This document shows, piece after piece, positions 3,400 through 18,905 of a stretch of DNA of 50,303 bases. The stretch is from an uncultured Acidobacteriota bacterium (GTDB lineage Bacteria > Acidobacteriota > Vicinamibacteria > Vicinamibacterales > CAVVIG01). The stretch lies in assembly GCA_902826465.1 (NCBI GenBank), contig CADEEX010000001.1, forward strand, positions 11,162 to 61,464, read 5' to 3'. Position numbers and translations under genes: made by a program. The notes under the pieces are model-generated. The model worked only from the letters and a program-made list of their open reading frames with translations, did no database searches and was not told the origin of the DNA. Position 1 is the stretch's first letter. Each line of letters starts with the position of its first letter.

Positions 3400-3443
3400 C
3401 GAGGTGGCGCGACCCGCGGGCGCGCCACATCATACCAGTCGCC

Positions 3444-4367
3444 TCAGTGCTGCGCGGCGGCGGGCGGCGCCAGTGCGGCGGCGGCCTCAGCCGCTACGTG
3501 CGCGGCATCGCCAGGCGCGGCCGGGTGCGCCGCGTCTTCGGTCGTCGTCACCGTCGGCACGAGCGGAGCCTTCGCCGCTTCCGCGGCCCGCGTCTCGGCC
3601 AGTGCCTTCTTCATGGCAGGGCTTCTGACGAGGATCGACACGCGCCTGTTGCGAGCGTCGGTGGGGTCTTCAGGTATGCGCAATTCACGATCGGCAAGAC
3701 CGCGGACACTGTTCACGTGACCGGCGTCGACGCCATTGCGCTCGATGATCCGGCGCGCGGCGTTGGCGCGATCCGAGGAGAGTTCCCAGTTCGAGTAGCC
3801 GTCGCTGGAGGAGTACTGGCGGCTGTCGGTGTGCCCCTCGAGATCGAGGTCATGACCGAGCAGCGCGAGCTGCTTGCCGATGACGGCAAGCAACTGCTCG
3901 CTTTCGCCGACCAGCTTTGCGCTGCCGGAGTCGAAGAAGCTCGATTCGGCCTTCTCGATGAGATCGATACGCAGCCCTTCAGGCGTCACGGTGAACTCGA
4001 TCTGATCGCGGAGCCCCTGAAAGGTGGGATTCGTGTCGAGCTCGAGCTTGATCTGGGCGACGACCGACTCGAGTTGCTTCTGCTCGGCGTCGGCGTCGGT
4101 GATCGGCGCCTGCGGCTTCGGCTCGCCGATCGAATCGGCGCCCGGCAGCACCCCTTTGCCGCCGTCCATCCCGGCGATCGGATCGCGGAAGTAGCCGCCG
4201 ACACCAGCCTTCACCTGCGGGCTCTGGTTGACCAGCCACATCACCAGGAAGAACGCCATCATCGCGGTCACGAAGTCGGCATACGCGACTTTCCAGGCAC
4301 CGCCATGGTGGCCGCCGTGGCCCCCCTTCTTCTTGACGATGATGACCGGCTGAACCTGATTGCTCAT
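3444..4367 (-). CDS. motB: flagellar stator protein MotB (OmpA-like C-terminal peptidoglycan-binding domain)
   Basis: 307 aa. N-terminus KKKGGHGGHHGGAWKVAYADFVTAMMAFFLVMWL is the typical MotB plug/TM with the conserved Asp. OmpA-like LEGHTDS...NRRV motif. Ala/Pro-rich C-terminal tail. ATG at 4367, 2 nt after the motA stop. Confidence 0.9.
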   Translation of the reverse strand: MSNQVQPVIIVKKKGGHGGHHGGAWKVAYADFVTAMMAFFLVMWLVNQSPQVKAGVGGYFRDPIAGMDGGKGVLPGADSIGEPKPQAPITDADAEQKQLESVVAQIKLELDTNPTFQGLRDQIEFTVTPEGLRIDLIEKAESSFFDSGSAKLVGESEQLLAVIGKQLALLGHDLDLEGHTDSRQYSSSDGYSNWELSSDRANAARRIIERNGVDAGHVNSVRGLADRELRIPEDPTDARNRRVSILVRSPAMKKALAETRAAEAAKAPLVPTVTTTEDAAHPAAPGDAAHVAAEAAAALAPPAAAQH

Positions 4368-4369
4368 GA

Positions 4370-5251
4370 CTAGGCGGCCGCCGCGGCAGCCGGCGCTTCA
4401 GCCTTGGTGCCCTTGCACAACTGCTCTGTCTCCTCGAAGCTCGGTCGCAATTCGTCTGGCAGCACGCGCCGCGCGAACTCGATGGACACCATCGGCGAGA
4501 AGCCCTTGTACATCGCCAGCAGCCCGGACTTGATGCACTGTTCGTAGTGACCTTCCATGGCCACCCGCAGTTCCATGCTGGTCGCCATCGGCTGCATGAA
4601 GCCGTACGACATCAGAATGCCGAGGAACGTGCCGACCAGCGCCGCGCCCACCTTGTGCCCGATTTCCGCAGGTGGCCCGTCGATCACGCCCATCGTGATG
4701 ACGACGCCGAGCACGGCCGCGACGATGCCGAGGCCGGGCATGGCATCCGCCACCTTGTTCAGCGTCGCCGCCGGACGTGCCTCTTCGTGATGACGCACCT
4801 CGAGATCGAGATCCATCAGGTTCTCGAAGTCGTGCGGGCCGATGCCACCGATGATGATCACCTTCACCGAATCGGCCAGGAAGTCGACGGCATGGTGCCT
4901 GGCCAGAAACTTCGGGTACTTCGACATGATCGCGCTCTCGGCCGGCTTCTCGAAGTGTGACTCGAGCGCCATGACTCCCGACTGCTGCGCCGCCTTGAAA
5001 ATCTGATAGAGCATCGCCAGCAGCTCTTTGTAGTCGTTCTTGGTCGATCCCGTGGCCAGCAGCCCCTTCAGCTGCCCGAGCATTCCTTTCAGGATCGACG
5101 GCGGCGTGCCAATCAGCATGCTGCCCAGTGCCGCGCCGCCGATGATGACGAACTCGGCGGGCTGGACCAGCACCAGAAGGTTGCCACCTTCCATGAGGTA
5201 GCCGCCGACAACTGACGCAGTGACGATGACGAATCCGATGATCAGAAACAT
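4370..5251 (-). CDS. motA: flagellar stator protein MotA
   Basis: 293 aa. N-terminus MFLIIGFVIVTASVVGGYLMEGGNLLVLVQPAEFVIIGGAALG is classic MotA. Four predicted TM segments. ATG directly abuts the TAA of the upstream regulator gene. Confidence 0.92.
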   Translation of the reverse strand: MFLIIGFVIVTASVVGGYLMEGGNLLVLVQPAEFVIIGGAALGSMLIGTPPSILKGMLGQLKGLLATGSTKNDYKELLAMLYQIFKAAQQSGVMALESHFEKPAESAIMSKYPKFLARHHAVDFLADSVKVIIIGGIGPHDFENLMDLDLEVRHHEEARPAATLNKVADAMPGLGIVAAVLGVVITMGVIDGPPAEIGHKVGAALVGTFLGILMSYGFMQPMATSMELRVAMEGHYEQCIKSGLLAMYKGFSPMVSIEFARRVLPDELRPSFEETEQLCKGTKAEAPAAAAAA

Positions 5252-6355
5252 TTATGCGACCGGCGTTGCCGGGCCTCCATCATTCACCGTGTCTGACGGC
5301 GTCTCCCCCTGAGACGCGGCCGGCCGTGCATCGTCCTGGCAGCAGAGCCACGCATTGACGACCTGCGGGTCGAACCATGACCCTGAGTGGCGCACGAGCT
5401 GTGCGTTGGCGGCCGCCACAGACTGGGCGGGCGGCGTGTCGGTACCGCCGCTCAGGGAGTCGTACGCCTCGGCCACCGCGATGATGCGGGCGCCGATCGG
5501 AATGGCGCCCGTGCGCAGCCGACGCGGATAGCCGCGTCCGTCGAAGCGCTCGCGCGTGGCACCAACGATTTCCGCCGTCGGCGACAAATAGGGCACGCGC
5601 GCCAGCGCCTCTTCGGCGACCCGGACGTGCGAGCGGACGATCGCGTGCTCGCCGGAGCTGAGCGGCCAGGCCTTGCGGATGATGGAGCGTGGGATCGCCA
5701 GCTTGCCGATATCGTGCAGGAGCGCCGCGCGCTTGATGTGCCCGAGCAGCGGTTCAGCGATATCGAGCGCGTGCGATAGACGAATCGCTGTCACCGCCAC
5801 ACGACGGGCATGTTCGAGCGCTGCCACGTTCGGGCCATACAATTCATTGAGGCAGGCCTGCAGCTCCCGCGTCGATGCAATCGCCGCGTCGTTCAGCGAG
5901 CCGCCGATGCGGACGGCACTGTCAGCAATCTCGTCCTCGTACTTGGCGAGCGTGCCGCGTGACTGCTGCACGGTCTCCCGCCACTCCATGGCGCGGTTGA
6001 CGGCATCGGTCAGTTCGCCATGCGACACCGGCTTGGCGAGATAGTCGACGATGCCGAGACGCAGAGCCTCGATCAGATCTTCGAGGCTGCGATTGGCCGC
6101 GATGAGCACGACGCCGACATCCCGGCTTTCATGCCGCAGCCGTTCCGCCAGCTTCAGCCCGTCCGCCGGGGCAAGCCCCGAGACGTCAAGCAGTGCCACG
6201 TCTACGTCCGTGCGCCGTGCCACAGCCAGCGCTTCGCGCGACCCGCTGGCACCGGAGCAACGAAACCTGTCACCGTCCAGCGACTGGCAGATCAACAGGG
6301 TCAAATCCGTGTCCTCGCCGACGACGAGAACGTGGGGCAGTTCCGAACTGGCCAT
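5252..6355 (-). CDS. response regulator with HD-GYP domain (RpfG-type putative c-di-GMP phosphodiesterase)
   Basis: Receiver HVLVVGEDTDL...VALLDVSG...DYLAKP, followed by HDIGKLAIP ... DGRGYP motifs. The ORF track extends to a TTG at 6403. I prefer the ATG at 6355 (MASSELPHVLVV) because a sigma-28-like site lies at 6405-6431. Confidence 0.85.
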   Translation of the reverse strand: MASSELPHVLVVGEDTDLTLLICQSLDGDRFRCSGASGSREALAVARRTDVDVALLDVSGLAPADGLKLAERLRHESRDVGVVLIAANRSLEDLIEALRLGIVDYLAKPVSHGELTDAVNRAMEWRETVQQSRGTLAKYEDEIADSAVRIGGSLNDAAIASTRELQACLNELYGPNVAALEHARRVAVTAIRLSHALDIAEPLLGHIKRAALLHDIGKLAIPRSIIRKAWPLSSGEHAIVRSHVRVAEEALARVPYLSPTAEIVGATRERFDGRGYPRRLRTGAIPIGARIIAVAEAYDSLSGGTDTPPAQSVAAANAQLVRHSGSWFDPQVVNAWLCCQDDARPAASQGETPSDTVNDGGPATPVA

Positions 6356-6404
6356 GAATTGGTGTCTACGAATGTCCCGGGAGACGCCGATGTCTCCGGC
6401 CAAG

Positions 6405-6431
6405 GAATCGGCGGGGGGAACGGCGGCTTGA
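6405..6431 (-). promoter_or_regulatory. sigma-28 (FliA)-like promoter candidate for the HD-GYP-motAB-kinase operon
   Basis: Minus strand reads TCAA-N15-GCCGATTC (consensus TAAA-N15-GCCGATAA), about 50 nt upstream of the ATG at 6355. Confidence 0.4.
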
Positions 6432-6449
6432 ATGCAGCGGGAGGAAGGC

Positions 6450-6476
6450 CACGCTGCAGCGGTGAGCCGCAGCGTG
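6450..6476 (-). terminator. possible hairpin terminator after the CapD-like gene
   Basis: Inverted repeat CACGCTGC ... GCAGCGTG (8 bp, 11-nt spacer) 25 nt past the stop at 6501. Only a weak C/T-rich tail follows, with no U-run. Confidence 0.3.
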
Positions 6477-6500
6477 CAGGGAGGGGTCGGGAGCGACGAC

Positions 6501-7790
6501 CTAGCGAAGCCAGCTCGCGCGGCGCGCCGGTGCGGTGCGCACCACTCGCAGCCGCGAGCTGTCTGCCGCGGACGACGGCGATGTCGACGCGCTGCGTGGT
6601 GTCGCGGGCCGGTTCACCACGACCGCGTGATGGCGCACCAGCGGCCGCGGCCGCGAGGCGCGGGCTGTGCCGATGATCTGAGTCTTCACTTCGCGGGCCA
6701 GCGTCCAGGCCTGCTCGCTCGGGACGAAATCCGGAATCGCCAGTGTCAGTGCGGTCATCACGCCGTAGGCGTCGTCGCGCGCCACGGCCCGGCGCAGCGT
6801 CCTCAACCAGGCCTCGGAGCCGGTCGAACGGGTCCGCGCCTGATGCGCGACCCACACACGGTCGTGGGCCGTCTTCTCGAGACGGATGCCCTGAGACGTC
6901 AGCTCTTCGGCCATCTTCTCGCCGGGACGCAGGCCGACAACCTCGACGTGGACCTCCGGCAGTCCCTGGTCGCGTGCAATCGCGAGCATCCTGTCCGCCA
7001 GATCGCCGACGCGCACCTGCGGGCCCATGTCCAGCCAGAACGTTTCACCGCCGCCGGCCAGCGTGGCGGCTTTCATGACCAGCGACGCGGCCTCGGACAC
7101 CGTCATGAAGAAGCGGGTCGCATTCGGGTCGGTCAGCAGAATCGGCTGTCCATGGCGGATCCGCTCGCGCATCACCTCCACGAAGCTGCCACTGCTCGCC
7201 AGCACGTTGCCGAAGCGGACGACGATCGGCCGGCGCACCTCGGCGTAGGAGCCGAGTACCACCTGCTCGGCAAGGCGCTTGGTGGCGCCCATGACGCTAT
7301 GCGGGGCGGCCGCCTTGTCAGTGGAGATCAGGACGAAGCGGGCACCAACCTCGCGCGAAGCCGCGAGCACGGCGCTGGTCCCGAGAATGTTGACCCGCGC
7401 CGCCGCACAGATCGCACGCTCGGCCATCGTCACATGCTTGTAGGCCGCGGCGTGGAAGACGATGTCCGGGCGGACACGACGCATGACGCGAGCGATGCTC
7501 GAGGCACGCGTCACGTCGCACAGCACCGGCTCGAGAGCCACGGTGGGGCTGGCGGCAGACAGTACCTGCTCGATGCGGAAGAGCGCGAGTTCCGACTGCT
7601 CGACCAGGACCAGCTGCTTCGGCTGGCAGGCCGCAATCTGTCGCGCCAGTTCCGACCCCACGGTGCCGCCAGCGCCAGTGATCAGGCAGACCTGACCGGC
7701 AAAGGCGGCGCGGTCATCGTCGGACAGCAGCGATTCGACCTGTCGTCCCAACAGACGTTCTTCTTCAGCGTGTGTGAGCATGTCCATCAT
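6501..7790 (-). CDS. NDP-sugar 4,6-dehydratase/epimerase, CapD/PglF/PseB-like (Polysacc_synt_2 type)
   Basis: 429 aa. Rossmann motif CLITGAGGTVGSELARQI and the FHAAAYKHV active-site region typical of CapD/WbpM/PglF C-terminal domains. Start ATGA-coupled to the motB2 stop (7787-7790). Confidence 0.8.
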   Translation of the reverse strand: MMDMLTHAEEERLLGRQVESLLSDDDRAAFAGQVCLITGAGGTVGSELARQIAACQPKQLVLVEQSELALFRIEQVLSAASPTVALEPVLCDVTRASSIARVMRRVRPDIVFHAAAYKHVTMAERAICAAARVNILGTSAVLAASREVGARFVLISTDKAAAPHSVMGATKRLAEQVVLGSYAEVRRPIVVRFGNVLASSGSFVEVMRERIRHGQPILLTDPNATRFFMTVSEAASLVMKAATLAGGGETFWLDMGPQVRVGDLADRMLAIARDQGLPEVHVEVVGLRPGEKMAEELTSQGIRLEKTAHDRVWVAHQARTRSTGSEAWLRTLRRAVARDDAYGVMTALTLAIPDFVPSEQAWTLAREVKTQIIGTARASRPRPLVRHHAVVVNRPATPRSASTSPSSAADSSRLRVVRTAPARRASWLR

Positions 7791-8533
7791 GGCGTCGAGC
7801 CGGTCGTCGCCGGCTCCTCTCGGTTGGTGGTGGCCGCGTTCAGAATGACGAGATCGATGCGCCGGTTGCTGGCGCGCGTTTCCGCGGTGCCGTTCGGCAC
7901 GCGCGGGTGAAATTCACCGTAGCCGGTGGCCGACAGACGGGCCGGGGCGAGGCCTCGCGCGATCAGGAACTCGACGACCCGGCTGGCACGCGCCGCCGAG
8001 AGGTCCCAGTTCGACTGAAACCGCACGGTATGAATCGGCACGTCGTCGGTATGTCCTTCGACGCGAACGGCATTCGGGAATCGGTTCAGAACAACGGCCA
8101 CACGGGCGACCAGCGCCTGGGCCGTATCGGACAGATCGTCACGTCCGGTGCCAAATGCGCCGGCTTCGGGAATCGACAGCGTCACGCCGCGACGGTCGAC
8201 AATCAGCTCCAGCCGCTCCATCTGCAGTTCGCCAGCCAGTTCCTGCGACACCGCGGCTTCGACCTCTTCGCTCGACGGCTCGTCAGCGGCGCCAATGGCC
8301 GCGCTGCCGGCACGCACACCGTCAACATTGGGCGACGGCTTGGCGCGCGCCGAGTCGTCGAACGCCGACCGCATCGCCGTCGACATCCGCTGCAGCTTCT
8401 GCGCGTCGACGTTCGAGATGGCATACATCGTCGCGAAGAACGCGAACAGCAGCGTCATGAAGTCGGCGTACGAGACCAGCCAACGGTCGCGCGACAGGTG
8501 CGCAATGGTTCGGCGCTGTGCCAGGCGTCGCAT
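7787..8533 (-). CDS. second MotB-family stator protein (OmpA-like C-terminus)
   Basis: 248 aa. DRWLVSYADFMTLLFAFFATMYAIS (TM with conserved Asp). C-terminal VEGHTDD...NRRIDLVIL OmpA-like motif. Start shares 1 nt with the motA2 stop. Confidence 0.85.
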   Translation of the reverse strand: MRRLAQRRTIAHLSRDRWLVSYADFMTLLFAFFATMYAISNVDAQKLQRMSTAMRSAFDDSARAKPSPNVDGVRAGSAAIGAADEPSSEEVEAAVSQELAGELQMERLELIVDRRGVTLSIPEAGAFGTGRDDLSDTAQALVARVAVVLNRFPNAVRVEGHTDDVPIHTVRFQSNWDLSAARASRVVEFLIARGLAPARLSATGYGEFHPRVPNGTAETRASNRRIDLVILNAATTNREEPATTGSTP

Positions 8534-9345
8534 CAGGCCACCTTCCGCGCTGTCTCGTCGTGGTTGGCGACCAGCAGAAAGCCGCGGAGCTTCTGCTCGA
8601 TGACGCGGGGATTGGCGCCCTCCTGAACCGACACCATGCCCTCGATGACCAGTTCGCGAATCAGCGCGGCACGGCGGGCGCTGCCGCGCAGGCGTGTCGC
8701 CAGTGGCAACAGCAGCAGGTTGGCCACGGCAACGCCGTAGACGGTGGCGACGAACGCCACGGCGATGCCGCCGCCCAGCTTGGATGGGTCGCTGAGGCTC
8801 TGCATCACGTGAATCAGGCCCAGCACCGCCCCGAGGATGCCAAGCGTCGGGGCGTAACCGGCGGCGGTCTCGAGCACTTCGGCCGGCGCCTCTTCGCGCT
8901 CGCGGCGCGCGTCGCTTTCGACCTCGAGGATCTGGCGCGAGACCTTGGTTGAGGTGTTGTCAACGGCGAGGTTGAGCGCCATTCGCAGAAACGAATCCTG
9001 CGCCCGCTCCACTTCGGACTCGAGGGCGACGACGCCCTTGCGCCGCGAGATATTCGAGTAGCTGATGATGTCGGCGAGAATGCGGTCGAGAGAGTCAGGG
9101 CTGACGAACAGGGCCGCGCGCACGGCGACACCGGTCCGTTTGATCAGGGCCAGCGGATAGCTGACCATCACCGCCGCCAGCGTGCCGCCAAACACCACCA
9201 GCGCTGCGGTCGGCTGCCACAACGCCCGCACCGGCGCGCCTTCGAGCTTCTGTGCGAGCACGACGACCGCGAGCGCCGCCGGAATGCCGATGACGGTGGC
9301 CAGCTCGAACTTCGCCGACGACGACGAACGGCGACCAACGCTCAC
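8533..9345 (-). CDS. second MotA/PomA-family stator channel protein (MotA_ExbB)
   Basis: 270 aa, multi-TM. C-terminal AAGYAPTLGILGAVLGLIHVM...GGIAVAFVATVYGVAVANLLLLP is the MotA/TolQ/ExbB signature. GTG start overlaps the upstream stop (GTGA). Confidence 0.85.
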   Translation of the reverse strand: MSVGRRSSSSAKFELATVIGIPAALAVVVLAQKLEGAPVRALWQPTAALVVFGGTLAAVMVSYPLALIKRTGVAVRAALFVSPDSLDRILADIISYSNISRRKGVVALESEVERAQDSFLRMALNLAVDNTSTKVSRQILEVESDARREREEAPAEVLETAAGYAPTLGILGAVLGLIHVMQSLSDPSKLGGGIAVAFVATVYGVAVANLLLLPLATRLRGSARRAALIRELVIEGMVSVQEGANPRVIEQKLRGFLLVANHDETARKVA

Positions 9346-10040
9346 GCGACCCTGCTTTCAGCGCCGGTGGCATCGATGATGCGAATCGCGTGGGCGAGTT
9401 CCGGCACGGTGTTCCAGTTCTGCATCTGCGCCGCCAGGTCGCGCATGAACTGCAGATCGGCGGCGGTGTCGACGGTGAGCCGCAGCTCAGGCCGGCGCAC
9501 GTTGACGGGTGCCGGGGTCACGAGCGGCACGAAGCGCTCGCGATCGCGGCGGATGAGCGGCGTGACGTGCTCGCGGTCAGCACGATCGGTTGCCAGAATC
9601 GCGGCACGATTGAGCGCGTCCACGGTGATCGCTTCGACGGCCGCGCCATACGGCAAGCCGTCCTCGATCACGTGGTCGGCGCCTGACTCGCGCAGCGCCT
9701 TCAGCACGCGCTCCGGACCGTCAATATCAGTGAGTGGATCGTCGGCGGTCGCGCGCACGACATAGCGGGCATTCACTGAACGCGCGGCCAGCGCGAATCG
9801 GAGGAGCACGTCCTCGTCGGGTCCGCGGAACACCGGCACGCAGTACGCCGCCGCGGCCGCGGCCAGCGGATCGTCGTCGCGGCTGGTCGTCGTGGCCAGC
9901 ATCACCGGTGCGGCAGACCCGACCAGCAGCCGTGCCAGGCAGTGCGCCACCAGCGATCGCGCCCCGATCGTCGTCAGCGATTTTCCGGGCAACCGGCTCG
10001 AGCCCATGCGGGCCTGGAGAATGATCACCGCCTGGCTCAC
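9342..10040 (-). CDS. cytidylyltransferase, SpsF/FlmC/PseF-like (CMP-nonulosonate synthetase family)
   Basis: VIILQARMGSSRLPGKSL is the SpsF/FlmC N-terminal signature. The ORF track extends to 10643, but that part overlaps the ATP-grasp gene and is Arg/Gly junk. GTG at 10040 overlaps the upstream TGA (GTGA). Confidence 0.8.
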   Translation of the reverse strand: MSQAVIILQARMGSSRLPGKSLTTIGARSLVAHCLARLLVGSAAPVMLATTTSRDDDPLAAAAAAYCVPVFRGPDEDVLLRFALAARSVNARYVVRATADDPLTDIDGPERVLKALRESGADHVIEDGLPYGAAVEAITVDALNRAAILATDRADREHVTPLIRRDRERFVPLVTPAPVNVRRPELRLTVDTAADLQFMRDLAAQMQNWNTVPELAHAIRIIDATGAESRVA

Positions 10041-11047
10041 GCGACGTCTCCTATCGCCATCGGCGGCCGGCGGCCCGAATCGAGCGCATCGCCCTTCACG
10101 AAGATGGACGCCTCGTAGCTGGTCAGCCACAGGTCGCCGCGAAAACGGCCAATGCGAGGCGCGACCCGGCGCCCCGCCGTCAGCTCGAGCAGATACAGTG
10201 GAAAATCGGCACCAGCCGCGATCGTCAAGGGGATCCCACCAGAAAAGCGCGGGTTGATCTCGAACACCACCGGTTCGCCCTTCACCACGCGGCACTGAAT
10301 GTTGACGGCGCCGAGGAACGGCATGGCCGCCGCCACAGATTCCGCCAATGCCATGAGCGCCGGGTCCTGCACCGTGCGCCCCCGGTCCATGACACCGGCA
10401 CGGACGACGACGCGTTCGCGCGGGACGATTGCGATCGGCTGATGATTGAAATCGCAGAACAGGTCGATCGTGTATTCGGGCCCGTCCAGGAACTCCTGAA
10501 CGACCGGGGTCTCGACGTAGTTCGAGAAGAAGGCGAGATCCTTCGCGCTGTGGACCTGGAAGGCGCCGACACCGCCACGACCGGCGCGGGGTTTGATGAA
10601 CAGCGGAAAATTTGGGTCGGCAGGCACGTCGGCAGGCAGCCATGTCTCCGCGGCGCGGACACCGTGGTCGCGCAGGTAGCGGCAGGTGGCGAGCTTGTCG
10701 TTACAGGTCTTGCTGGTCCACTCGGGTGAGACCGCCACGCGGATACCGCGCGCCAGGAACCACTTCGCCGCCGACGCAAAGATCTCGAGCTCGTCATCGA
10801 TGGTCGGTACGATCAGCGCGATCCGCTCGGTCTCACAGATGCCGATGATGGCGTCGAGGTAGTCGGGTGACGTCGCCATCGGCACGTGATACCAGCGCTC
10901 CGCCACGTGAACCGCCGGCGACAACGGGTTGACGTCGGTCACGATGACGCGACCGCGTCGGCCCGAGGCCGCCAGCGCCGACTGAAACGCCTGCACCAGC
11001 GGTACGCGTCTCGACGCCGCCGTGATCAGGACGTTAAGCGACACCAC
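10037..11047 (-). CDS. ATP-grasp domain protein (carboxylate-amine ligase-like)
   Basis: 336 aa. PreATP-grasp N-terminus (NVLITAASRRVPLVQAF) and ATP-grasp core (PLFIKPRAGRGGVGAF...EFLDGPEYTIDL...FEINPRFSGG). Confidence 0.75.
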   Translation of the reverse strand: MVSLNVLITAASRRVPLVQAFQSALAASGRRGRVIVTDVNPLSPAVHVAERWYHVPMATSPDYLDAIIGICETERIALIVPTIDDELEIFASAAKWFLARGIRVAVSPEWTSKTCNDKLATCRYLRDHGVRAAETWLPADVPADPNFPLFIKPRAGRGGVGAFQVHSAKDLAFFSNYVETPVVQEFLDGPEYTIDLFCDFNHQPIAIVPRERVVVRAGVMDRGRTVQDPALMALAESVAAAMPFLGAVNIQCRVVKGEPVVFEINPRFSGGIPLTIAAGADFPLYLLELTAGRRVAPRIGRFRGDLWLTSYEASIFVKGDALDSGRRPPMAIGDVA

Positions 11048-12089
11048 GCTGCTCCCTGACCGACGGCAGGTCGTGTCCGAGAAAGGGCGCGCCGGCCTCG
11101 ATGGCCCGGGTCACGACCGTGCCAATGAGTTCGTCGCGCAAGGCCGGCGATAGACCGCGTGACGGGCGCAGCACGGTGATGTCGTCGCGTTCGATGCGCT
11201 GTCCGGGCACCAGCGCCCGGGTGGTATGCAGGGCGCGGCGGCTGGCCGTCAGGTTGACCGCTTCGGCCGGCAGGCATTCGCGGCGCCCGTGCCCGAGCGC
11301 CAGCTGAGTGCGGGCCGCCGCCGTGACGAGGTGTGCGAATTGCTCCGGCGAGCTCGACACCGCGGCATCGACACCGTGGTCGGCGCTCATCATCAGGTGA
11401 CGCTCGTAGAGCGTCGCGCCCAGGGCCACTGCCACCGGGACGGCCGACGTATCGCGGGCGTGATCGGACAGGCCGACAGGCAGGTCGAACAGATGCGAGA
11501 GCGTCTGGATGGCGCGCAGGTTCTCGCTGCCCGCCGGCACCGGATACGCCGAGACGCAGTGCAGCAGCGCGATCCGCGTGGCGCCGTGCTCTCGGGCGAC
11601 CGCCACGGCGTGCGCGGTCTCCTCGAGCGTCGACATCCCGGTCGACATGATGAGCGGCAGGCCGGTGGCCGCCGCCGCCGCAATCAGCGCGTCATACGTC
11701 AGGTCTCCGCTCGCAATCTTGAGAGCACCGACACCGACGTCAACGAGCATATCCACCGCCGCCAGGGAGAACGGCGTTGCCACCAGCTCGAGCCCGCGCT
11801 CCCGGACTCGTTCGGCAATGGCGATGTGGGCCGCTCGATCGAGCTCGAACTGACGGAAGAAGTGCCGCAGCGACGCGTCAGGCACATGCGCCGGCGCCGG
11901 GCACTCGGCCGCCACCAGCTCCTCGGCGCGAAACGTCTGCAGCTTGACCGCCGAGGCACCGGCGTCCGCCGCGGCGTCGACCATCGCCAGCGCCCGTTCG
12001 AGGGAGCCTCCGTGGTTGAGGCCCAGCTCGGCGATCACGAACAGCGGTTCACGAACGCCCACACGACGACTGCCGATCTCAAATGACAT
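11034..12089 (-). CDS. nonulosonic acid synthase (NeuB/PseI/LegI family) with C-terminal SAF domain
   Basis: 351 aa. LFVIAELGLNHGGSLERALAMVDAAADAGASAVKLQTF and LSDH motifs typical of NeuB. The C-terminal SAF-like segment is present. Confidence 0.9.
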   Translation of the reverse strand: MSFEIGSRRVGVREPLFVIAELGLNHGGSLERALAMVDAAADAGASAVKLQTFRAEELVAAECPAPAHVPDASLRHFFRQFELDRAAHIAIAERVRERGLELVATPFSLAAVDMLVDVGVGALKIASGDLTYDALIAAAAATGLPLIMSTGMSTLEETAHAVAVAREHGATRIALLHCVSAYPVPAGSENLRAIQTLSHLFDLPVGLSDHARDTSAVPVAVALGATLYERHLMMSADHGVDAAVSSSPEQFAHLVTAAARTQLALGHGRRECLPAEAVNLTASRRALHTTRALVPGQRIERDDITVLRPSRGLSPALRDELIGTVVTRAIEAGAPFLGHDLPSVREQRGVA

Positions 12090-12777
12090 GACTCTCTGAC
12101 CTCATAGGGACCAATCGGTCCGCGGTTTCTGGTACCTGCGCCAGGGCGCGCACGTGGACGCCGACGCCGACGGCCTCGCAATCACAGGCGATCGCGTCCG
12201 GCAGCAGGTGGATGGTGCACATCCCGATCGCCGCGGCACCTTCGATGTCCGCATGCCGATCGTCGCCAACAAAGACGGTGTGTGCGGGCGCGGCGCCGAG
12301 TCGCGTCAGCGCCGCACGGAATGCCGGCGCGGCGGGCTTGCCGGCGCCATCGCCATGCTCGGTGGCAAACACCACCGTGTCGACGAACGGCTCGAGGCCG
12401 AGCGCCGCGATCTTGCGGCGCTGAATGCGCGGCGTGCCGTTGGTGACGACACCGAGTTTCCAGCTGGCGCGGAGTTCGGTCAGGACGCGCCGCGTCTGCC
12501 GGGGCAGCCGCAGTGACGGCGTGTGCTCGCGCATCACGTCGGCGAGGACCGGCACCAGTGACCCTGGCAGCGAGAAGCGCTCGCACAGCGCCTGCAGCTC
12601 GCGGCCACGCGCACCACCGACCAGCGCACGGCGCAGGACCTTCAGCACCGACCGCTCCGGCAGCCCGCGCTCGGCGGCCAGGCGGCGGCCCACTTCGCGG
12701 AAGCCGCTGCGCACGAATGCGCGGTATGGATACAGCGTGTCGTCGAGATCAAAGAGAATGGCGCGCGATTCACGCAC
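12079..12777 (-). CDS. HAD-superfamily hydrolase/phosphatase
   Basis: DxD motif ILFDLDDTLY, VVTNG, and FVGDD...D motif IV. The ORF track starts at 12843. GTG at 12777 (VRESRAILFDLDD) gives the usual short N-terminus and only an 8-nt overlap with the upstream gene. Confidence 0.75.
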   Translation of the reverse strand: MRESRAILFDLDDTLYPYRAFVRSGFREVGRRLAAERGLPERSVLKVLRRALVGGARGRELQALCERFSLPGSLVPVLADVMREHTPSLRLPRQTRRVLTELRASWKLGVVTNGTPRIQRRKIAALGLEPFVDTVVFATEHGDGAGKPAAPAFRAALTRLGAAPAHTVFVGDDRHADIEGAAAIGMCTIHLLPDAIACDCEAVGVGVHVRALAQVPETADRLVPMRSESHVI

Positions 12778-13774
12778 AGCGACGGCTCCTGTCCTGCAGC
12801 AGCGCATGAATACGGGCGGCCACTCGCTCCGCACCCCGTCCATCGACCAGACGACGCGCCCGCGTCGTCATCGCCACCCGCTGCGTCCGATCCGCCGCCA
12901 GGCGCGCCACACCGGCCGCCGCGGCATCCAACGACTGACGGCTTGCAGACACCTCACCGGCATCGAGCACCGCGCCTTCCTGCGCAAACGCGCGAATGGC
13001 GCGGCGCTGTTCCGGCACGACCGCCAGCGCCACGGCCGGCACGCCGAGCGCGCACGCCTCGTACAGCGTCACGCCGCCGGCGACAATCGCCAGATCGGCG
13101 TCGAGCAGCGCGCGCGTCAGCCCGGTGCGCACCGCCAACCAGCTGGCATGACGCAACGGTGGGCGCGAGCCTTTGGCGAACCCTGCCGCCACGGCGATCT
13201 CGGCATCTGGCACACGCGACACAATCGCATCCACCAGCCGCTGCGCGACGCGCACGACATGCTGTCCACCGCCGAGCGCCACGATGATCTGCGGATGCGC
13301 GAGGTGGCGCTGTGGGGCCCGCAGGTGCCGGGCACCGGCAATGCGGCTATCGAGGAGGTAGTAACGGGCGCCGTGCAGCACATCGAGAGCGGCACCCGGA
13401 CGGCGAGTGCCTAGGGCGCCACAGATCACCAGGTCGGCGTCGTGAACCCGTTCATCGTCATGGACACTGACCGACAGGATGCCGGCGCGACGGGCGCGAG
13501 CCACCCAGGCGCGACCACGGGATGGACTGGGGTCGTCAACCACGAGGACGTCGGCATCGCGCAACGCCTCGGCGTCGGTCACGACGGGGCCAACGACGTC
13601 AGCCGCCGCCCGTGCCGCACGACCACCGCGCAGTGAGATAGAGATGTCCATCTCGAGACAGCGCGCCAGCGCGCGGGCGCGCATCAAGTGGCCGAAGCCG
13701 ACCCTCGGGCCAGCGGCAATGCGGAACACGCAGCGGAGACGTCCGTTTGCGTGAGTCTTGGCGAGGACGGACAC
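12770..13774 (-). CDS. PseG/SpsG/FlmD-like UDP-sugar hydrolase (GT28-like fold)
   Basis: 334 aa. N-terminal FRIAAGPRVGFGHLMRARALARCL matches the PseG G-x-GH-x-x-R signature. C-terminal GGVTLYEACALGVPAVAL is the MurG/GT28-like C-terminal motif. GTG start. Confidence 0.7.
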   Translation of the reverse strand: MSVLAKTHANGRLRCVFRIAAGPRVGFGHLMRARALARCLEMDISISLRGGRAARAAADVVGPVVTDAEALRDADVLVVDDPSPSRGRAWVARARRAGILSVSVHDDERVHDADLVICGALGTRRPGAALDVLHGARYYLLDSRIAGARHLRAPQRHLAHPQIIVALGGGQHVVRVAQRLVDAIVSRVPDAEIAVAAGFAKGSRPPLRHASWLAVRTGLTRALLDADLAIVAGGVTLYEACALGVPAVALAVVPEQRRAIRAFAQEGAVLDAGEVSASRQSLDAAAAGVARLAADRTQRVAMTTRARRLVDGRGAERVAARIHALLQDRSRRCA

Positions 13775-13776
13775 GA

Positions 13777-14373
13777 TCAGGCGATGCTCCAGACGCGGCG
13801 GGCAATCAGCACCCAGGCGTCAAACGTTGGCGCCAGTTCGCGTTCAAGCAGCGTGGCGACGGCGTTCCAATCGGCGTTGACCTGATGGGCGATGACCGCT
13901 TCGACCAGGCGGCAGAGCCGCAGGACGAGCGCGTCGAAGTCAGCACGGTGGGGCTCGATGCACGTCTTGGCACGCCCGAGTGCCGCCGTCAACGTTGTCA
14001 GCGTCTGTATTGAGGTGGTGAGACCCGGCAGATCGCGTACCGCGGCCGCTACCTGCCCGGCGCGCAGACGCGTGGCAATCCGCAGCGTCGCCGCCTTGAG
14101 CGGGACGATGCTGTCGAACGCGGCCCGTGCAGAGGCGTGCAGAAGCTCGTCGACACTCGCGGTCTCGACGTGGATCTCACCAACGGCGCGCAGTTTGCGC
14201 GCCAGCGCGATCGGCTCGCGGAATGTCGGCACAGCGACACCGCCGAATCGGACGGCCGTCACAACCTGACGGGCGCCGAGTTCGCCGTTCTCGAGCAGAT
14301 TGAGCAGTTCTCCCCAGTTTTCCGGGCCTGAAAGCGATTTTCGCGTCAGACCGTTCACGCTGATCTGGAGCAC
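13777..14373 (-). CDS. hypothetical protein, first gene of the sugar/stator operon
   Basis: 198-aa ORF, GTG start preceded by GGAGG at 7-nt spacing. Ends 2 nt before the next gene. I recognise no family. The C-terminal half looks all-helical. Confidence 0.6.
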   Translation of the reverse strand: MLQISVNGLTRKSLSGPENWGELLNLLENGELGARQVVTAVRFGGVAVPTFREPIALARKLRAVGEIHVETASVDELLHASARAAFDSIVPLKAATLRIATRLRAGQVAAAVRDLPGLTTSIQTLTTLTAALGRAKTCIEPHRADFDALVLRLCRLVEAVIAHQVNADWNAVATLLERELAPTFDAWVLIARRVWSIA

Positions 14374-14397
14374 ATCGAACCTCCGGCTTCGTCCTAG

Positions 14398-14413
14398 AGC
14401 CAGAAGCTTGCCA
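14398..14413 (-). promoter_or_regulatory. weak sigma-54-like -24/-12 candidate
   Basis: Minus strand reads TGGCAA-gcttc-TGGCT, with correct GG/GC spacing against TGGCAC-N5-TTGCW. It would leave only about a 15-nt leader before the GTG at 14373. Confidence 0.25.
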
Positions 14414-14451
14414 ACTGCGGCAGGGTCGACATGACAGTTTGGTCACATCGT

Positions 14452-14479
14452 TAAAGCGCGTGGACTCGTGTCCGATTAC
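14452..14479 (+). promoter_or_regulatory. sigma-28 (FliA) promoter of fliC
   Basis: TAAA-N15-TCCGATTA against consensus TAAA-N15-GCCGATAA, about 85 nt upstream of the fliC ATG. Confidence 0.75.
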
Positions 14480-14492
14480 GTCCCCGAACAAT

Positions 14493-14556
14493 GGGGTGCC
14501 TCACGGAGGCCCCCGGGTGGACGGCAAGGATGCCGATCACCGATTTCACGGAGGAC
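14493..14556 (+). promoter_or_regulatory. fliC 5' leader with two CACGGAGG motifs (putative CsrA sites, the second overlapping the SD)
   Basis: TCACGGAGG at 14501-14509 sits in the loop of a GGGG(t)GCC/GGCCCCC hairpin. TCACGGAGG at 14546-14554 overlaps the GGAGGA Shine-Dalgarno. fliW-csrA are present in the window. Confidence 0.4.
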
Positions 14557-14564
14557 AGATCAAC

Positions 14565-15362
14565 ATGGCTTTCTCAATTGTCAACAACGTCGCCGCGGCG
14601 AACGCGCAGGCCAACCTGACGGCCACCAACCTCGGACTGAACAAGGCGTTGAACCGCCTGTCCAGCGGTCTTCGCATCAACAGCTCGGGCGACGACGCGG
14701 CCGGCTTGGCCGTGGCCAACAGCTACCGTTCGAACATCGCGGTGCTGAACCAGGGCATCCGCAACGCCGGTGACGGTCTGTCGACCCTGCAGATTCAGGA
14801 CGGCGCCCTGAACAACATCTCGAACCTCGTTGATCGTCTCGCCACCCTGGCGACTCAGTCGGCGTCGTCGAGCTCGGCGGTTGACCGCAACGTGCTGGAC
14901 GCGGAATTCCAGGACGTGCTCGGAGAAATCGACCGCGAAGCGACGGTGGCCGGCCTCGACGCGTCACAGGGCTTCTCGGTGTTCGTCAGCAACAACAGCA
15001 CGAACGGCACCATCGGCGGCACCATCGGTGCGGCTGACACGACGGGTCTGTCGCTGACCGGTCTGGCGGTTGACACCGCGTCAAACGCGGCAACGGCGGT
15101 TGCGTCCCTTGCGGCGGCGGTCACCTCGCTCGGCAGTGTCCAAGCCCAGGTCGGTACCATTCAGAACCGCCTGCAGTACGCCATCAACCTGTCCACCTCG
15201 CAGGTGGTCAACAACACGGCGGCCGAAAGCCGGATTCGCGATGCCAACGTCGCGGAAGAGTCGTCGAACCTGACCAAGTTCAACATCCTGACGCAGAGCG
15301 GCGTGGCCGCACTGGCGCAGGCGAACCAGGCCAACCAGTCGGTGCTCCAGCTGCTCCGCTAA
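14565..15362 (+). CDS. fliC: flagellin (short, 265 aa)
   Basis: MAFSIVNNVAAANAQANL...LSSGLRINSSGDDAAGLAV N-terminal and ...SNLTKFNILTQSGVAALAQANQANQSVLQLLR C-terminal flagellin domains. ATG at 14565 with GGAGGA 9 nt upstream. The ORF-track start at 14439 lies upstream of the promoter. Confidence 0.95.
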   Translation: MAFSIVNNVAAANAQANLTATNLGLNKALNRLSSGLRINSSGDDAAGLAVANSYRSNIAVLNQGIRNAGDGLSTLQIQDGALNNISNLVDRLATLATQSASSSSAVDRNVLDAEFQDVLGEIDREATVAGLDASQGFSVFVSNNSTNGTIGGTIGAADTTGLSLTGLAVDTASNAATAVASLAAAVTSLGSVQAQVGTIQNRLQYAINLSTSQVVNNTAAESRIRDANVAEESSNLTKFNILTQSGVAALAQANQANQSVLQLLR

Positions 15363-17274: not shown

Positions 17275-17745
17275 ATGCTCCCGCGACCGCTGGCAGCGCT
17301 GATCGAAGAGTATCGGGCCGGGCTCGAAGCGGAGCTACCCATTCTTCGACGGCTGCATCGCGTCGCCACGCATCAGCACGAAGCCAGTGGGAACCACGAC
17401 CTCGACTCGCTCAACAGCGCCGGCGATGAGCGCGACCGCCTGATGACGGCGCTGGTCAACATCGAGGGTCCGCTGCGAGACATCAGAAAGATACTCTCCG
17501 ACGCCCGCCAGAAGGCGCGACTGCTGCCTGGCTACAGCGAGGCCGTGGCCCTGCACACCGAGGCCGTGTCGCTCGTGTCCGAGATTCTGAAACTGGATGA
17601 GGATTCCGTGCAGGCGCTCGCCGCCGCAGAGCGGCTGCGACGCGAGAGCGTCCGCGCGGTCGAGCAGGGCGAAACGACGCTGGCCGCTTATCGGCGCGTC
17701 ATGACGGCGCCACCGGGCGCCACGCTCGTCGACCGCCGCGGCTGA
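17275..17745 (+). CDS. hypothetical helical protein in the FliT position
   Basis: ATG 1 nt after the fliS stop. 156 aa, predicted all-helical. No family recognised. Its 3' end overlaps the convergent GNAT gene by 58 nt. Confidence 0.5.
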   Translation: MLPRPLAALIEEYRAGLEAELPILRRLHRVATHQHEASGNHDLDSLNSAGDERDRLMTALVNIEGPLRDIRKILSDARQKARLLPGYSEAVALHTEAVSLVSEILKLDEDSVQALAAAERLRRESVRAVEQGETTLAAYRRVMTAPPGATLVDRRG

Positions 17746-18904: not shown

Positions 18905-18905
18905 G

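Follow-up and report, generated by a model that had tools for sequence, protein, structure and literature searches.

A flagellar stator gene pair within a putative nonulosonic acid operon of an uncultured soil Acidobacteriota bacterium and its relatives in Vicinamibacterales

Introduction

Why the genes for a flagellar stator lie among those for sugar biosynthesis is the question raised by a window of 50,303 nucleotides (the whole stretch of DNA analyzed) from an uncultured soil Acidobacteriota bacterium (Vicinamibacterales), the MAG of which is 88% complete. A preliminary description of this DNA placed a second MotA/MotB pair inside a pseudaminic-acid-like sugar operon and proposed that this stator was produced in step with sugar synthesis. 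Motors with two stators have been described in Pseudomonas aeruginosa (MotAB and MotCD) and Bacillus subtilis (MotAB and MotPS) (PMC11005332, PMC7595845), and the TGI4 and TGI5 stator classes have both been reported in Acidobacteria (PMC12505986). In the present study, we investigated the layout of this locus, its conservation, and the probable roles of its products.

Results

Layout of the operon

The ORF check recovered all nine of the co-oriented genes that had been proposed, on the minus strand between 6501 and 14373, and the junctions, the lengths of which were computed with the starts implied in the preliminary description, agreed exactly: a 2-nt gap followed by overlaps of 8, 11, 14, 4, 4, 1, and 4 nt. 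A Shine-Dalgarno-like sequence precedes most of the starts. The stator genes, designated MotA2 and MotB2, do lie within the sugar operon, between the cytidylyltransferase and 4,6-dehydratase genes and with overlapping codons on both sides, and the operon adjoins fliC. The nine genes are as follows, from the first to the last.

13777-14373, minus strand: gene 1, a 198-aa protein without an assigned family, with a low-confidence N-terminal beta domain and a confident four-helix bundle
12770-13774, minus strand: PseG/SpsG-like (GT-B fold) putative nucleotide-sugar hydrolase, weak match (TIGR03590 (PseG) 59.9 bits, cut-off 153.55)
12079-12777, minus strand: HAD-IA hydrolase, TIGR02253/N-acylneuraminate-9-phosphatase-like (PF00702 75 bits; TIGR02253 110.9 bits, below the cut-off)
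11034-12089, minus strand: NeuB-family nonulosonic acid synthase (PF03102 229 bits, with a SAF domain)
10037-11047, minus strand: ATP-grasp ligase, PRK12767 "carbamoyl-phosphate-synthase-like" (NF009405 289 bits; PDB 2pn1 140 bits)
9342-10040, minus strand: SpsF-type (CTP_transf_3) cytidylyltransferase (PF02348 82 bits; PDB 6oew 65 bits)
8533-9345, minus strand: MotA2, flagellar stator A subunit of the MotC/PomA/MotP (TGI4) type (PF01618 103 bits; NF006583 264.5 bits, above the cut-off of 237)
7787-8533, minus strand: MotB2, stator B subunit, MotD/MotS-like (MotB_plug 65.7 bits; OmpA 63 bits)
6501-7790, minus strand: PglF/SpsM/CapD-type UDP-GlcNAc 4,6-dehydratase (PF02719 (Polysacc_synt_2) 291 bits)

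Regarding gene 1, no match was obtained in Pfam or NCBIfam, and its 74 homologues are all unnamed and of soil or Vicinamibacterales origin. The AlphaFold model has pLDDT values above 90 across helices 74-195, for which Foldseek returned generic helical bundles only. Orthologues are also first in the operon in five relatives (G003, G006, G007, G032, and G034).

Two stator pairs

In MotA2, the Arg/Glu loop is present (100-111), as are the Pro residues of GYAPTLG and LLLLPLA, and matches in the PDB were obtained with Paenibacillus MotA1 at 207 bits, MotA of B. subtilis at 157, and PomA at 117. Its sole usable start is the GTG at 9345 because upstream extension of the ORF reaches just 9357, and this start overlaps the stop of the cytidylyltransferase gene directly upstream as GTGA. 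MotB2 has the channel Asp at D24 in SYADFMT, scored 209 bits with the MotD model NF006541 (below the cut-off of 283), and matched the MotB proteins of C. sporogenes (118 bits) and B. subtilis (105 bits) in the PDB. Based on these features, MotA2/MotB2 is predicted to be a genuine, ordinary flagellar torque generator.

The window contains another stator pair in a unit of its own, 1.2 kb downstream of MotA2/MotB2.

3444-6355, minus strand: separate unit identified by profiles, with a REC-HD-GYP regulator (5252-6355) and the E. coli-type (TGI5) stator MotA1 (4370-5251) and MotB1 (3444-4367)

MotA1 exceeded the cut-off of TIGR03818 (352.6 versus 303.8 bits), MotB1 scored 222 bits with PRK09041, the regulator has HD_5 and REC domains, and the unit continues with two hybrid kinases. 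The presence of two stator sets was, therefore, correctly described, but the designation of MotA2/MotB2 as the "second" is arbitrary, both types being standard in flagellated relatives.

Sugar enzymes

Families were assigned from Pfam and NCBIfam profile scores relative to curated cut-offs and from sequence matches in the PDB, and the profiles recovered the CapD/PglF-like dehydratase, NeuB, ATP-grasp, HAD, and SpsF-like transferase that had been named earlier. The label "pseudaminic-acid-like" does not hold. The dehydratase is PglF-like (208 bits with PglF, 5bju, versus 92 bits with PseB, 2gn4; the PseB model, with a cut-off of 407, gave 132 bits), and its motif STDKAAAPHSVMGATK provides a T-x9-M-x3-K triad, with Met rather than Tyr in the catalytic triad. 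The synthase is nearer to NeuB/LegI and SpsE than to PseI, with profile scores of 277 bits for NeuB_NnaB and 251 bits for PseI, both below the cut-offs, and PDB matches of 171 and 163 bits for NeuB, 141 for SpsE, and 137 for PseI. The PseF model gave no match to the cytidylyltransferase. A longer ORF of 433 aa for the cytidylyltransferase, at 9342-10643, runs into the ATP-grasp gene and was rejected as an artefact. The closest solved relatives of the HAD hydrolase are PH1655 and N-acylneuraminate-9-phosphatase (approximately 48-50 bits); the PseG-like protein, the sole match of this type in the genome, has no solved relative by sequence.

The enzyme set resembles that of the Sps (legionaminic acid) route of B. 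subtilis (PMC7439481). The sugar product is uncertain because every sugar-enzyme score is below the curated equivalog cut-off. The pathway had been regarded as incomplete; a PseC-type aminotransferase and a Maf gene are in fact absent from the window, which is explained by their presence elsewhere in the genome, where the proposed search located canonical PseB, PseC, and PseI on contig C18, while contig C308 carries a Maf homologue. C18 is one of two further nonulosonic acid loci in the genome, the other being on C165, and both are in polysaccharide contexts. In relatives, an aminotransferase gene sits within the operon; the operon of the host's genus lacks both this gene and the FlbD gene that relatives carry.

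Predicted promoters and terminator

Consensus and pattern scans, together with profiles for flagellin, identified the following features around the operon.

14398-14413, minus strand: putative sigma-54-like -24/-12 promoter motif of the sugar/stator operon, TGGCAAGCTTCTGGCT (TGGCAA-N5-T(C/G)GC)
14452-15362, plus strand: divergent flagellin gene fliC (ATG at 14565; Flagellin_N and Flagellin_C) with a sigma-28-like promoter, TAAAGCGC-N11-TCCGATT
6451-6475, minus strand: candidate terminator, a 10-bp G+C-rich hairpin without a U tract, 26 nt past the dehydratase stop
6406-6431, minus strand: sigma-28-like site TCAAGCC-N-GCCGATT heading the REC-HD-GYP/motA1/motB1/hybrid-kinase unit, conserved in G002

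The sigma-54-like motif occurs 23-28 nt before the start of gene 1 in six lineages (the present genome, G000, and G003, G006, G007, G028, and G034), the sequence around it is not conserved among these lineages, and its chance expectation in this genome is 3.7e-4 per 60-nt window. The genome encodes rpoN and 28 enhancer-binding proteins, none of them on the contig of the operon. In the -12 element, TGGC or TCGC takes the place of the consensus TTGC, and the predicted leader is only approximately 12-16 nt. The pattern scan detected sigma-28-like sites ahead of fliC, flgM, and the HD-GYP/motA1B1 unit and nowhere else. Within the nine-gene unit, no sigma-70-, sigma-28-, or sigma-54-like promoter was detected and terminator-like matches were at the chance level, in crude consensus scans that may miss promoters inside coding sequences. 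The RNA fold of 6404-6510 had an energy of -33.4 kcal/mol (z = -2.0), and a strong hairpin is present at the equivalent position in G002. Co-transcription of the sugar operon and its dependence on sigma-54 are suggested by these sequence features, and the arrangement of the operon is consistent with the earlier proposal that the stator would be produced in step with sugar synthesis.

Conservation of the gene order

The order of PseG-like, HAD, NeuB, ATP-grasp, cytidylyltransferase, (FlbD), MotA2, MotB2, and (dehydratase) recurs in ten relatives (G002, G003, G006, G007, G018, G025, G028, G032, G034, and L043), with the downstream dehydratase absent in G028 and G032. The order of sugar genes, (FlbD), MotA2, and MotB2 is kept in 16 of the 18 flagellated Vicinamibacterales sampled and also in G049 and G067, two genomes that belong to a different acidobacterial family. 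The cytidylyltransferase is directly upstream of MotA2 in G123, G170, G182, G280, G300, and G330 as well as in these two genomes, and this adjacency was found in none of the 53 other MotA2-bearing Acidobacteriota sampled. Since the identical order was found again in relatives at 45-80% protein identity, chance juxtaposition is excluded. An apparent "spacer" before MotA2 in G007, G025, and G032 is FlbD (PF06289, 78-88 bits), the start of which overlaps the cytidylyltransferase stop (ATGA or GTGA); coupling is, therefore, kept where the junction looks open. FlbD was not found in the present genome or its genus. Both modules are retained, unlinked, in G026 and G038, and the linkage is, thus, dispensable. 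Although the layout is genuine and the lineage has conserved it, it is a recombination of known parts and not a new kind of system.

Association with flagella

In seven genomes (G000, G003, G006, G018, G028, G032, and L043), fliC and the operon are divergently oriented, and the FliC of the present genome, of 265 aa, has a Ser/Thr-rich center (Ser and Thr make up 27% of residues 141-215). When 41 genomes (the present one and 40 relatives) were surveyed at a threshold of at least 55% identity, orthologues of the ATP-grasp ligase were present in 12/12 flagellated genomes and 0/29 others; G010 has only a 29%-identity paralogue, and G015, with only a MotA1-type stator, lacks an orthologue. Distant ATP-grasp homologues of other phyla are in polysaccharide clusters. 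Maf proteins act on flagellin (PMC7591256; bioRxiv 10.1101/2023.12.03.569772), and Maf homologues lie within the flagellar cluster of six relatives (G003, G015, G018, G025, G028, and G034). We infer that flagellin is the acceptor of the sugar, the identity of which is likewise deduced.

Discussion

The most likely reading, to which we assign a probability of approximately 0.7, is an operon fusion specific to this lineage, through which one stator is co-expressed with filament glycosylation. An ancestral flbD-motA-motB module would have fused with flagellin-glycosylation genes in this lineage, giving one polycistronic flagellar operon, divergent from fliC and most likely transcribed from a sigma-54-type promoter. 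This operon would encode the conserved four-helix-bundle protein, most of the enzymes for a CMP-activated Sps/legionaminic-type nonulosonic acid (the PglF-like dehydratase, PseG/SpsG-like hydrolase, NeuB-family synthase, and SpsF-like cytidylyltransferase), and a complete internal stator, while the ATP-grasp ligase and HAD phosphatase probably tailor the sugar. The missing aminotransferase step may be supplied in trans by the canonical PseC of contig C18 and transfer to flagellin by the Maf homologue of contig C308, both of which we assume. One stator type would be made together with the pool of sugar donor and, as judged from the promoter types, under a sigma factor other than that of flagellin, FlgM, and MotA1/MotB1.

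It appears unlikely that the gene order was inherited neutrally, by accident, and that promoters embedded toward the 3' end of the cytidylyltransferase gene (in flbD in relatives) drive motA2-motB2 independently of sugar synthesis, in which case nothing would be produced in step. In other bacteria, motAB operons are frequently equipped with sigma-28 or sigma-70 promoters of their own, our promoter scans were crude, and G026 and G038 broke the linkage and lost neither module; however, the 4-nt and 1-nt overlaps leave zero intergenic space, the apparent spacer in relatives is a gene that overlaps the upstream stop, no site of the three promoter types was found inside the unit, and 16 of the 18 flagellated Vicinamibacterales keep the order, with protein identities of 45-55%. 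We attach a lower probability still to the view that the product of the sugar genes is destined for a polysaccharide of the cell surface (LPS, capsule, or S-layer) and not for flagellin, the genes being mere neighbors of flagellar genes, for which the contexts of C18, C165, and the distant ATP-grasp homologues, and a window lacking a flagellin glycosyltransferase may be cited, but which is opposed by the divergence from fliC in seven genomes, the tracking of flagella by ATP-grasp orthologues, Maf homologues in the same supercluster in relatives, and the Ser/Thr-rich center of flagellin. A similarly low probability applies to a direct functional dependence between the sugar and this stator, for example because the sugar modifies a motor or stator component (the MotB2 linker, FlbD, or a periplasmic ring), or because the glycosylated filament specifically requires the TGI4 stator, so that the genes stay fused under selection. 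The deep conservation of the linkage, in one order and a second acidobacterial family, and the bracketing of the stator by pathway genes, with the dehydratase gene after motB2, are in its favor; nevertheless, the operon lacks a glycosyltransferase and the sole candidate is a Maf homologue of the flagellin-acting type, MotA2 and MotB2 have all ordinary stator features and no extra domain, and neither the linkage (G026 and G038) nor the downstream dehydratase (G028 and G032) is universal.

Among the closest known systems are flagellar glycosylation islands, in particular that of Clostridium beijerinckii NCIMB 8052, in which MotA and MotB are encoded whereas PseC is missing and is found at a separate locus (PMC13317340); in both that island and the present locus, nonulosonic acid genes are with flagellin genes, motAB is included, and PseC is elsewhere. 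The present locus differs in several respects: its stator genes are located inside the operon, joined by stop/start overlaps and with pathway genes on either side; conservation of the layout extends over a bacterial order; its enzymes are of the PglF/Sps-like and not the Pse type; Maf is outside the island in this genome; and the phylum is Acidobacteriota and not Bacillota. As in the dual-stator motors of P. aeruginosa and B. subtilis, one flagellar system has two stator classes (TIGR03818 for MotA1 and NF006583 for MotA2), whereas neither stator of those models is encoded within a sugar biosynthesis operon, and the two sets here are 1.2 kb apart with sigma-54-like versus sigma-28-like promoters.

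The Sps legionaminic acid pathway of B. subtilis (SpsM/C/D/G/E/F) acts on the spore crust and shares with this operon a PglF-complementable 4,6-dehydratase with the T-x9-M-x3-K triad, the PseG-like SpsG, the NeuB-family SpsE, and the CTP_transf_3 protein SpsF (PMC7439481). In contrast to Sps, the present operon also encodes an ATP-grasp ligase and a NANP-like HAD, lacks in the host's genus an SpsC-type aminotransferase and an obvious SpsD, and would have flagellin as its acceptor. As in the flbD-motA-motB modules of Bacillota, Spirochaetota, and Thermotogota, FlbD is directly before MotA2 in six relatives (G007, G025, G026, G032, G049, and G067), whereas motA2 of the present genome, without flbD, overlaps the cytidylyltransferase gene directly; MotA2 and MotB2 are most similar to the stators of Paenibacillus, Bacillus, and Clostridium.

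Gene Organization of the Sugar-stator Operon

The source genome (G000), a metagenome-assembled genome (MAG) of 66% G+C in 746 contigs, is 88% complete, and the gene content of the window is that of a flagellar and chemotaxis supercluster. Its nearest relatives are classified in public records as Vicinamibacterales (Acidobacteriota). Nine genes, all with coding-type composition and most with a Shine-Dalgarno-like sequence before the start codon, run on the minus strand from 14373 down to 6501. With the start codons implied in the preliminary description, the junctions proved to be as described there, namely, a 2-nt gap followed by overlaps of 8, 11, 14, 4, 4, 1, and 4 nt. Regarding motA2, the GTG at 9345 is the sole possible start, and its overlap with the stop codon of the upstream cytidylyltransferase gene thus reads GTGA. 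A 433-aa open reading frame at 9342-10643 was discarded as an artefact, the true start of the cytidylyltransferase gene being at 10040.

Genes of the sugar-stator operon and their profile matches
13777-14373, minus strand, 198-aa protein, no family match among the Pfam and NCBIfam profiles
12770-13774, minus strand, weakly PseG-like GT-B protein (59.9 bits, cut-off 153.55)
12079-12777, minus strand, HAD-IA hydrolase (profile match)
11034-12089, minus strand, NeuB-family synthase (PF03102, 229 bits)
10037-11047, minus strand, ATP-grasp ligase (NF009405, 289 bits)
9342-10040, minus strand, CTP_transf_3 cytidylyltransferase (CTP_transf_3, 82 bits)
8533-9345, minus strand, MotA2 (NF006583, 264.5 bits, exceeding the cut-off of 237)
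7787-8533, minus strand, MotB2 (plug and OmpA domains)
6501-7790, minus strand, Polysacc_synt_2 dehydratase (291 bits)

The unit is flanked on one side by fliC, fliD, and fliS, which are transcribed divergently, and on the other by genes for a REC-HD-GYP regulator, MotA1, MotB1, and two hybrid kinases. The remaining genes of the window comprise fliW-csrA-GNAT, flgKLMN-type, rod and ring, fliMN, fliA, flhFG, flhAB, fliPR, fliL, and che genes. The window has three local peculiarities: the lack of flbD, the lack of an aminotransferase gene within the operon, and the near adjacency of the two stator units. The C-terminal part of the dehydratase (6501-6830) carries an Arg/Ser/Pro-rich extension of approximately 100 aa; this length is shared with two genomes of the same genus, G002 and G003 (424 and 432 aa), and the extension is missing in more distant orthologues (approximately 385 aa).

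Two Stator Pairs

Profile matches confirmed the earlier claim of two stator sets in the window, with MotA2/MotB2 inside the unit and MotA1/MotB1 in the flanking one. The MotA_N and MotA_ExbB domains are both present in MotA2 (PF01618, 103 bits; PF20560, 28.5 bits), which also exceeds the threshold of the curated flagellar MotA profile; its best relatives of solved structure were flagellar stators throughout, i.e., Paenibacillus MotA1 (207 bits), the MotA proteins of Bacillus subtilis and Clostridium, PomA, and Campylobacter jejuni MotA. It also contains an Arg/Glu cytoplasmic loop at residues 100-111 and two conserved prolines, in GYAPTLG and LLLLPLA. MotB2, encoded directly downstream with a 1-nt overlap, has a plug domain (PF13677, 65.7 bits), an OmpA-type domain (PF00691, 63 bits), and the channel aspartate in its transmembrane helix (D24, in SYADFMT); the MotB proteins of Clostridium and Bacillus were its best solved relatives. 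The subtype of MotB2 is only approximate because its score of 209 against the MotD equivalog model is below the cut-off of 283. By these sequence features, MotA2/MotB2 form a flagellar stator of the TGI4 (MotC/D-PomAB-MotPS) type with predicted torque generation. MotA1 scored 352.6 bits against TIGR03818 (cut-off 303.8). Under a published classification (PMC12505986), MotA2 is TGI4 (PomAB-like) and MotA1 TGI5 (E. coli-like), two classes that have both been recorded in Acidobacteria (PMC12505986). The label "second" is arbitrary for either pair because most flagellated relatives have both. The genes for MotA1 and MotB1 are co-oriented with and abut those for the REC-HD-GYP c-di-GMP phosphodiesterase regulator and two hybrid PAS kinases (3444-6431).

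Identity of the Sugar Pathway

The operon had been called pseudaminic-acid-like, a label that was contradicted by model scores and by the catalytic triad of the dehydratase; in the assignment of each enzyme to the Pse, Leg, or Neu families that had been proposed as a check, none of the operon products qualified as PseB, PseG, PseI, or PseF. The dehydratase was rejected as PseB, with 132.5 bits against TIGR03589 (cut-off 407.75), and among PDB entries it was closer to C. jejuni PglF (5bju, 208 bits) than to PseB (2gn4, 92 bits). Its residues 156-171, STDKAAAPHSVMGATK, correspond to T-x9-M-x3-K, with Met at the position of the PseB Tyr, and it is a putative PglF/SpsM-type retaining UDP-GlcNAc 4,6-dehydratase. 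The synthase scored higher against NeuB_NnaB (277.4 bits) than against PseI (250.9 bits, cut-off 340.25), with both scores below the cut-offs of their own models, and was nearer to the solved NeuB and SpsE (141 bits) than to PseI. The PseG equivalog was likewise rejected for the PseG-like gene at 59.9 versus 153.55 bits, and the cytidylyltransferase, which gave no match to the PseF model, belongs to the CTP_transf_3 (SpsF-like) class. The HAD protein showed a weak likeness to N-acylneuraminate-9-phosphatase (approximately 48 bits), and no close characterised relative of the ATP-grasp protein was found; the presence of these two genes together suggests tailoring of the sugar.

The enzyme types match the legionaminic acid route of B. 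subtilis SpsM/G/E/F, in which intermediates are UDP-linked, pglF complements spsM, and the T-x9-M-x3-K triad has been described (PMC7439481), except that the counterpart of SpsG is only the weak PseG-like match. Unlike the Sps route, this operon lacks an SpsC-type aminotransferase and an SpsD-type acetyltransferase, and the only aminotransferase candidates are unlinked (contigs C18, C352, and C4). The product is probably a tailored nonulosonic acid of the Sps/PglF type and not of the Pse type.

Functions Encoded outside the Operon

The pathway had been described as incomplete. This holds for the window, which contains no DegT-type gene and no Maf- or FlmG-type flagellin glycosyltransferase; in the genome, the proposed search for pseC, pseH, and maf located a PseC-type aminotransferase (464 bits) on C18 and a Maf homologue on C308, and no PseH above the cut-off anywhere in G000. 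The C18 locus (L052, 8167-12001) is a canonical pseudaminic acid cluster that encodes PseB (491.8 bits), the PseC protein, a glycosyltransferase, and a PseI truncated where the contig stops. It adjoins a glucose-1-phosphate cytidylyltransferase gene, which suggests a surface-polysaccharide locus, and its aminotransferase may be lent to the flagellar pathway. In four relatives (G007, G028, G032, and G034) and in a public Vicinamibacterales contig (L043), a DegT-type aminotransferase gene (345 bits with the PseC model, 380 bits with the ArnB model) separates the first gene from the PseG-like one; at this position it is absent from the genus of G000. A third nonulosonic acid locus on C165 (554-8754) encodes a NeuB homologue (33% identity) together with two cytidylyltransferases that are PseF-like; the open frame of one of these also contains a match to a PseH-like acetyltransferase.

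The GNAT gene at 17688-18668, previously considered as a possible PseH, matched only generic GNAT models; it is still a candidate acetyltransferase and the sole candidate N-acetyltransferase near the operon. This 326-aa double-GNAT gene forms a group with fliW and csrA (PF02599, 76 bits) at 17688-19340, joined by overlapping or abutting codons, in which the GNAT gene overlaps the csrA stop. G003 likewise has this GNAT gene next to fliW; in G018, a member of the same family, a weaker GNAT match (29% identity) is found next to fliS.

The single Maf homologue (C308, 2045-4585, minus strand) has 846 aa, an MptE-like/DUF115 domain (PF01973, 127-132 bits), and a C-terminal SAM methyltransferase domain. 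Its contig is only 5.7 kb in length, and the gene adjoins a second methyltransferase-like open reading frame. This protein is a candidate flagellin glycosyltransferase and could also methylate. Maf homologues were located within the flagellar supercluster in G003, G015, G018, G025, G028 (2 kb after motB2), and G034.

Conservation of the Fusion

The neighbourhoods of MotA2 orthologues were compared among relatives and 301 sampled genomes, a survey with Acidobacteriota as its scope. The order PseG-like, HAD, NeuB, ATP-grasp, cytidylyltransferase, MotA2, and MotB2, usually followed by the dehydratase, was kept at 45-83% protein identity in the same genus (G002 and G003), the same family (G006, G007, and G018), and other families of the order (G025, G028, G032, and G034), and L043 shows the same gene order. 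A MotA2-type gene was present in 67 of the 301 genomes. Among these, a cytidylyltransferase gene directly upstream of MotA2 was found in 10 of the 11 Vicinamibacterales besides G000 and in both genomes of one family outside the class (G049 and G067), and in none of the remaining 53. When both samples were pooled, the fusion was present in 16 of the 18 flagellated Vicinamibacterales; G026 and G038 keep both the sugar and stator modules, unlinked. No stator genes were found near distant ATP-grasp homologues in Chitinophagales, Gemmatimonadota, Myxococcota, and others.

In G007, G025, and G032, motA2 is preceded by an apparent spacer of 217-238 nt, which was ruled out as room for a promoter, the region encoding FlbD (PF06289, 78-88 bits) from a start that overlaps the cytidylyltransferase stop. 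FlbD also precedes MotA2 in G026, G049, and G067, which identifies the fused element as the classical flbD-motA-motB module. flbD is absent from the motA2 site in the genus of G000 and was not found elsewhere in the G000 MAG by tblastn or with the Pfam model; the gene may truly have been lost, or it may fall in the 12% of the MAG that is missing.

The head of the sugar operon carries an inserted gene for an NHL-repeat protein (ScyF-like NHL model, 63 bits) in G007 (L033, 2950-3825) and G018 (L035, 14842-15600). At the other end, an extra conserved gene (MRILTFNWHEAY...) follows the dehydratase gene in G025 (L036, from approximately 7290 onward) and G034 (L037), and the operon thus continues there.

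Promoters and Boundaries

The sequence TGGCAAGCTTCTGGCT (14413-14398, minus strand), which precedes the first gene, fits the GG-N10-GC frame of sigma-54 promoters, with GG at -24 and GC at -12 in canonical spacing, and this motif is conserved upstream of the operon. In G003, G006, G007, G028, and G034, TGGCAA-N5-T(C/G)GC also lies 23-28 nt ahead of the start codon of the orthologous gene, making six lineages, among which the surrounding sequence differs. The pattern occurs 61 times in G000, both strands summed, which corresponds to an expectation of 3.7e-4 per 60-nt window. The genome encodes RpoN, on contig C338, and 28 enhancer-binding proteins.

Sigma-28-like sites (T[AC]AA-N-CCGAT) were found in promoter position only before fliC (14452), flgM (22350), and the HD-GYP/motA1/motB1 unit (6431). 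Internal promoters or terminators had been named as features that would uncouple the stator genes from the sugar genes. In consensus and pattern scans, the unit contained no sigma-28-like site, a scan of 3000-15000 returned no sigma-70-like sites, and terminator-like hits were at chance level (six versus 4.4 expected), every one of them within a coding sequence. No RNA families were detected in the window with Rfam. A 10-bp G+C-rich hairpin at 6451-6475 follows the dehydratase stop and is itself followed by the sigma-28-like site, an arrangement that is the same in G002. We infer from these elements one sigma-54-type transcription unit from approximately 14388 to approximately 6450 and, beyond it, a distinct unit of the sigma-28 type that carries the other stator.

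Discussion

In the present study, we favour, with a probability of approximately 0.7, a lineage-specific operon fusion. In Vicinamibacterales and a second acidobacterial family, an ancestral flbD-motA-motB module would have become an internal part of the operon for flagellin glycosylation, such that the sugar donor and this stator would be made together from the sigma-54-type promoter, and flagellin, FlgM, and the other stator would be made from sigma-28-type promoters.

Stator genes driven by independent internal promoters would make the gene order incidental to their expression, which appears unlikely considering that no sigma-70-like or sigma-28-like site was found within the unit and that the apparent spacers of relatives are flbD. 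It is also conceivable that the two stator sets represent different temporal or regulatory classes of one flagellum, in which a sigma-54 unit provides the CMP-sugar pool and the FlbD/MotA2B2-type stator before the filament, a sigma-28 unit then provides MotA1B1, the c-di-GMP phosphodiesterase regulator, and two kinases, and the fusion was selected for a shared assembly checkpoint or a direct sugar-stator dependence; we give this extended scenario little credence. That the stator depends directly on the sugar is, taken by itself, the least probable of the explanations considered: the modules are unlinked in G026 and G038, and the operon contains no transferase gene, for which reasons the fusion is better read as co-regulation than as biochemical dependence.

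A role of the sugar genes in surface polysaccharide is very improbable because ATP-grasp orthologues of at least 55% identity were present in exactly the 12 flagellated genomes among 41 (G000 and 40 relatives) and in none of the others. Taken together with the divergent orientation of the operon and fliC, which G000 shares with many relatives, and with the Ser/Thr-rich centre of the 265-aa flagellin, this distribution points to flagellin glycosylation as the role. With nonulosonic acid genes next to the flagellin gene and restricted to flagellated genomes, the operon would qualify as a glycosylation island.

Among published arrangements, the one most like this is a flagellar glycosylation island in Clostridium beijerinckii NCIMB 8052, which is reported to contain the CMP-Pse genes minus pseC, encoded elsewhere, plus MotA and MotB (PMC13317340). 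Dual-stator motors are well known (PMC11005332, PMC7595845); we found no report of stator genes that lie within a nonulosonic acid operon and overlap its other genes by codons, the C. beijerinckii island being the nearest, and none on acidobacterial flagellar glycosylation. Provided that transcription follows this reading, flagellated soil Acidobacteria couple one stator type to flagellin-sugar synthesis and place their two stator types under different sigma factors, which provides a testable model of the deployment of a dual-stator motor in a phylum whose motility has hardly been studied genetically. The pathway, formerly called Pse-type, is reassigned to a nonulosonic acid of the Sps/PglF type that is probably tailored, and its apparent gaps (the aminotransferase and Maf) have counterparts elsewhere in the genome. 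In annotation, the sugar genes here are to be read as flagellar, and the stator genes are not to be read as genes for sugar export or polysaccharide.

Regarding the first gene of the operon, 74 homologues of the 198-aa protein were found, none of them named, and its precomputed family is PF26154. In a structural model, the N-terminal beta region was poorly predicted and residues 74-195 formed a four-helix bundle with pLDDT above 90, for which a search of PDB structures returned only generic four-helix bundles. A four-helix bundle is likewise the predicted fold of GlfM, a specificity factor of Maf-2 (bioRxiv 10.1101/2023.12.03.569772), and a GlfM-like partnership of the 198-aa protein with Maf is offered, from the predicted fold, only as a lead.
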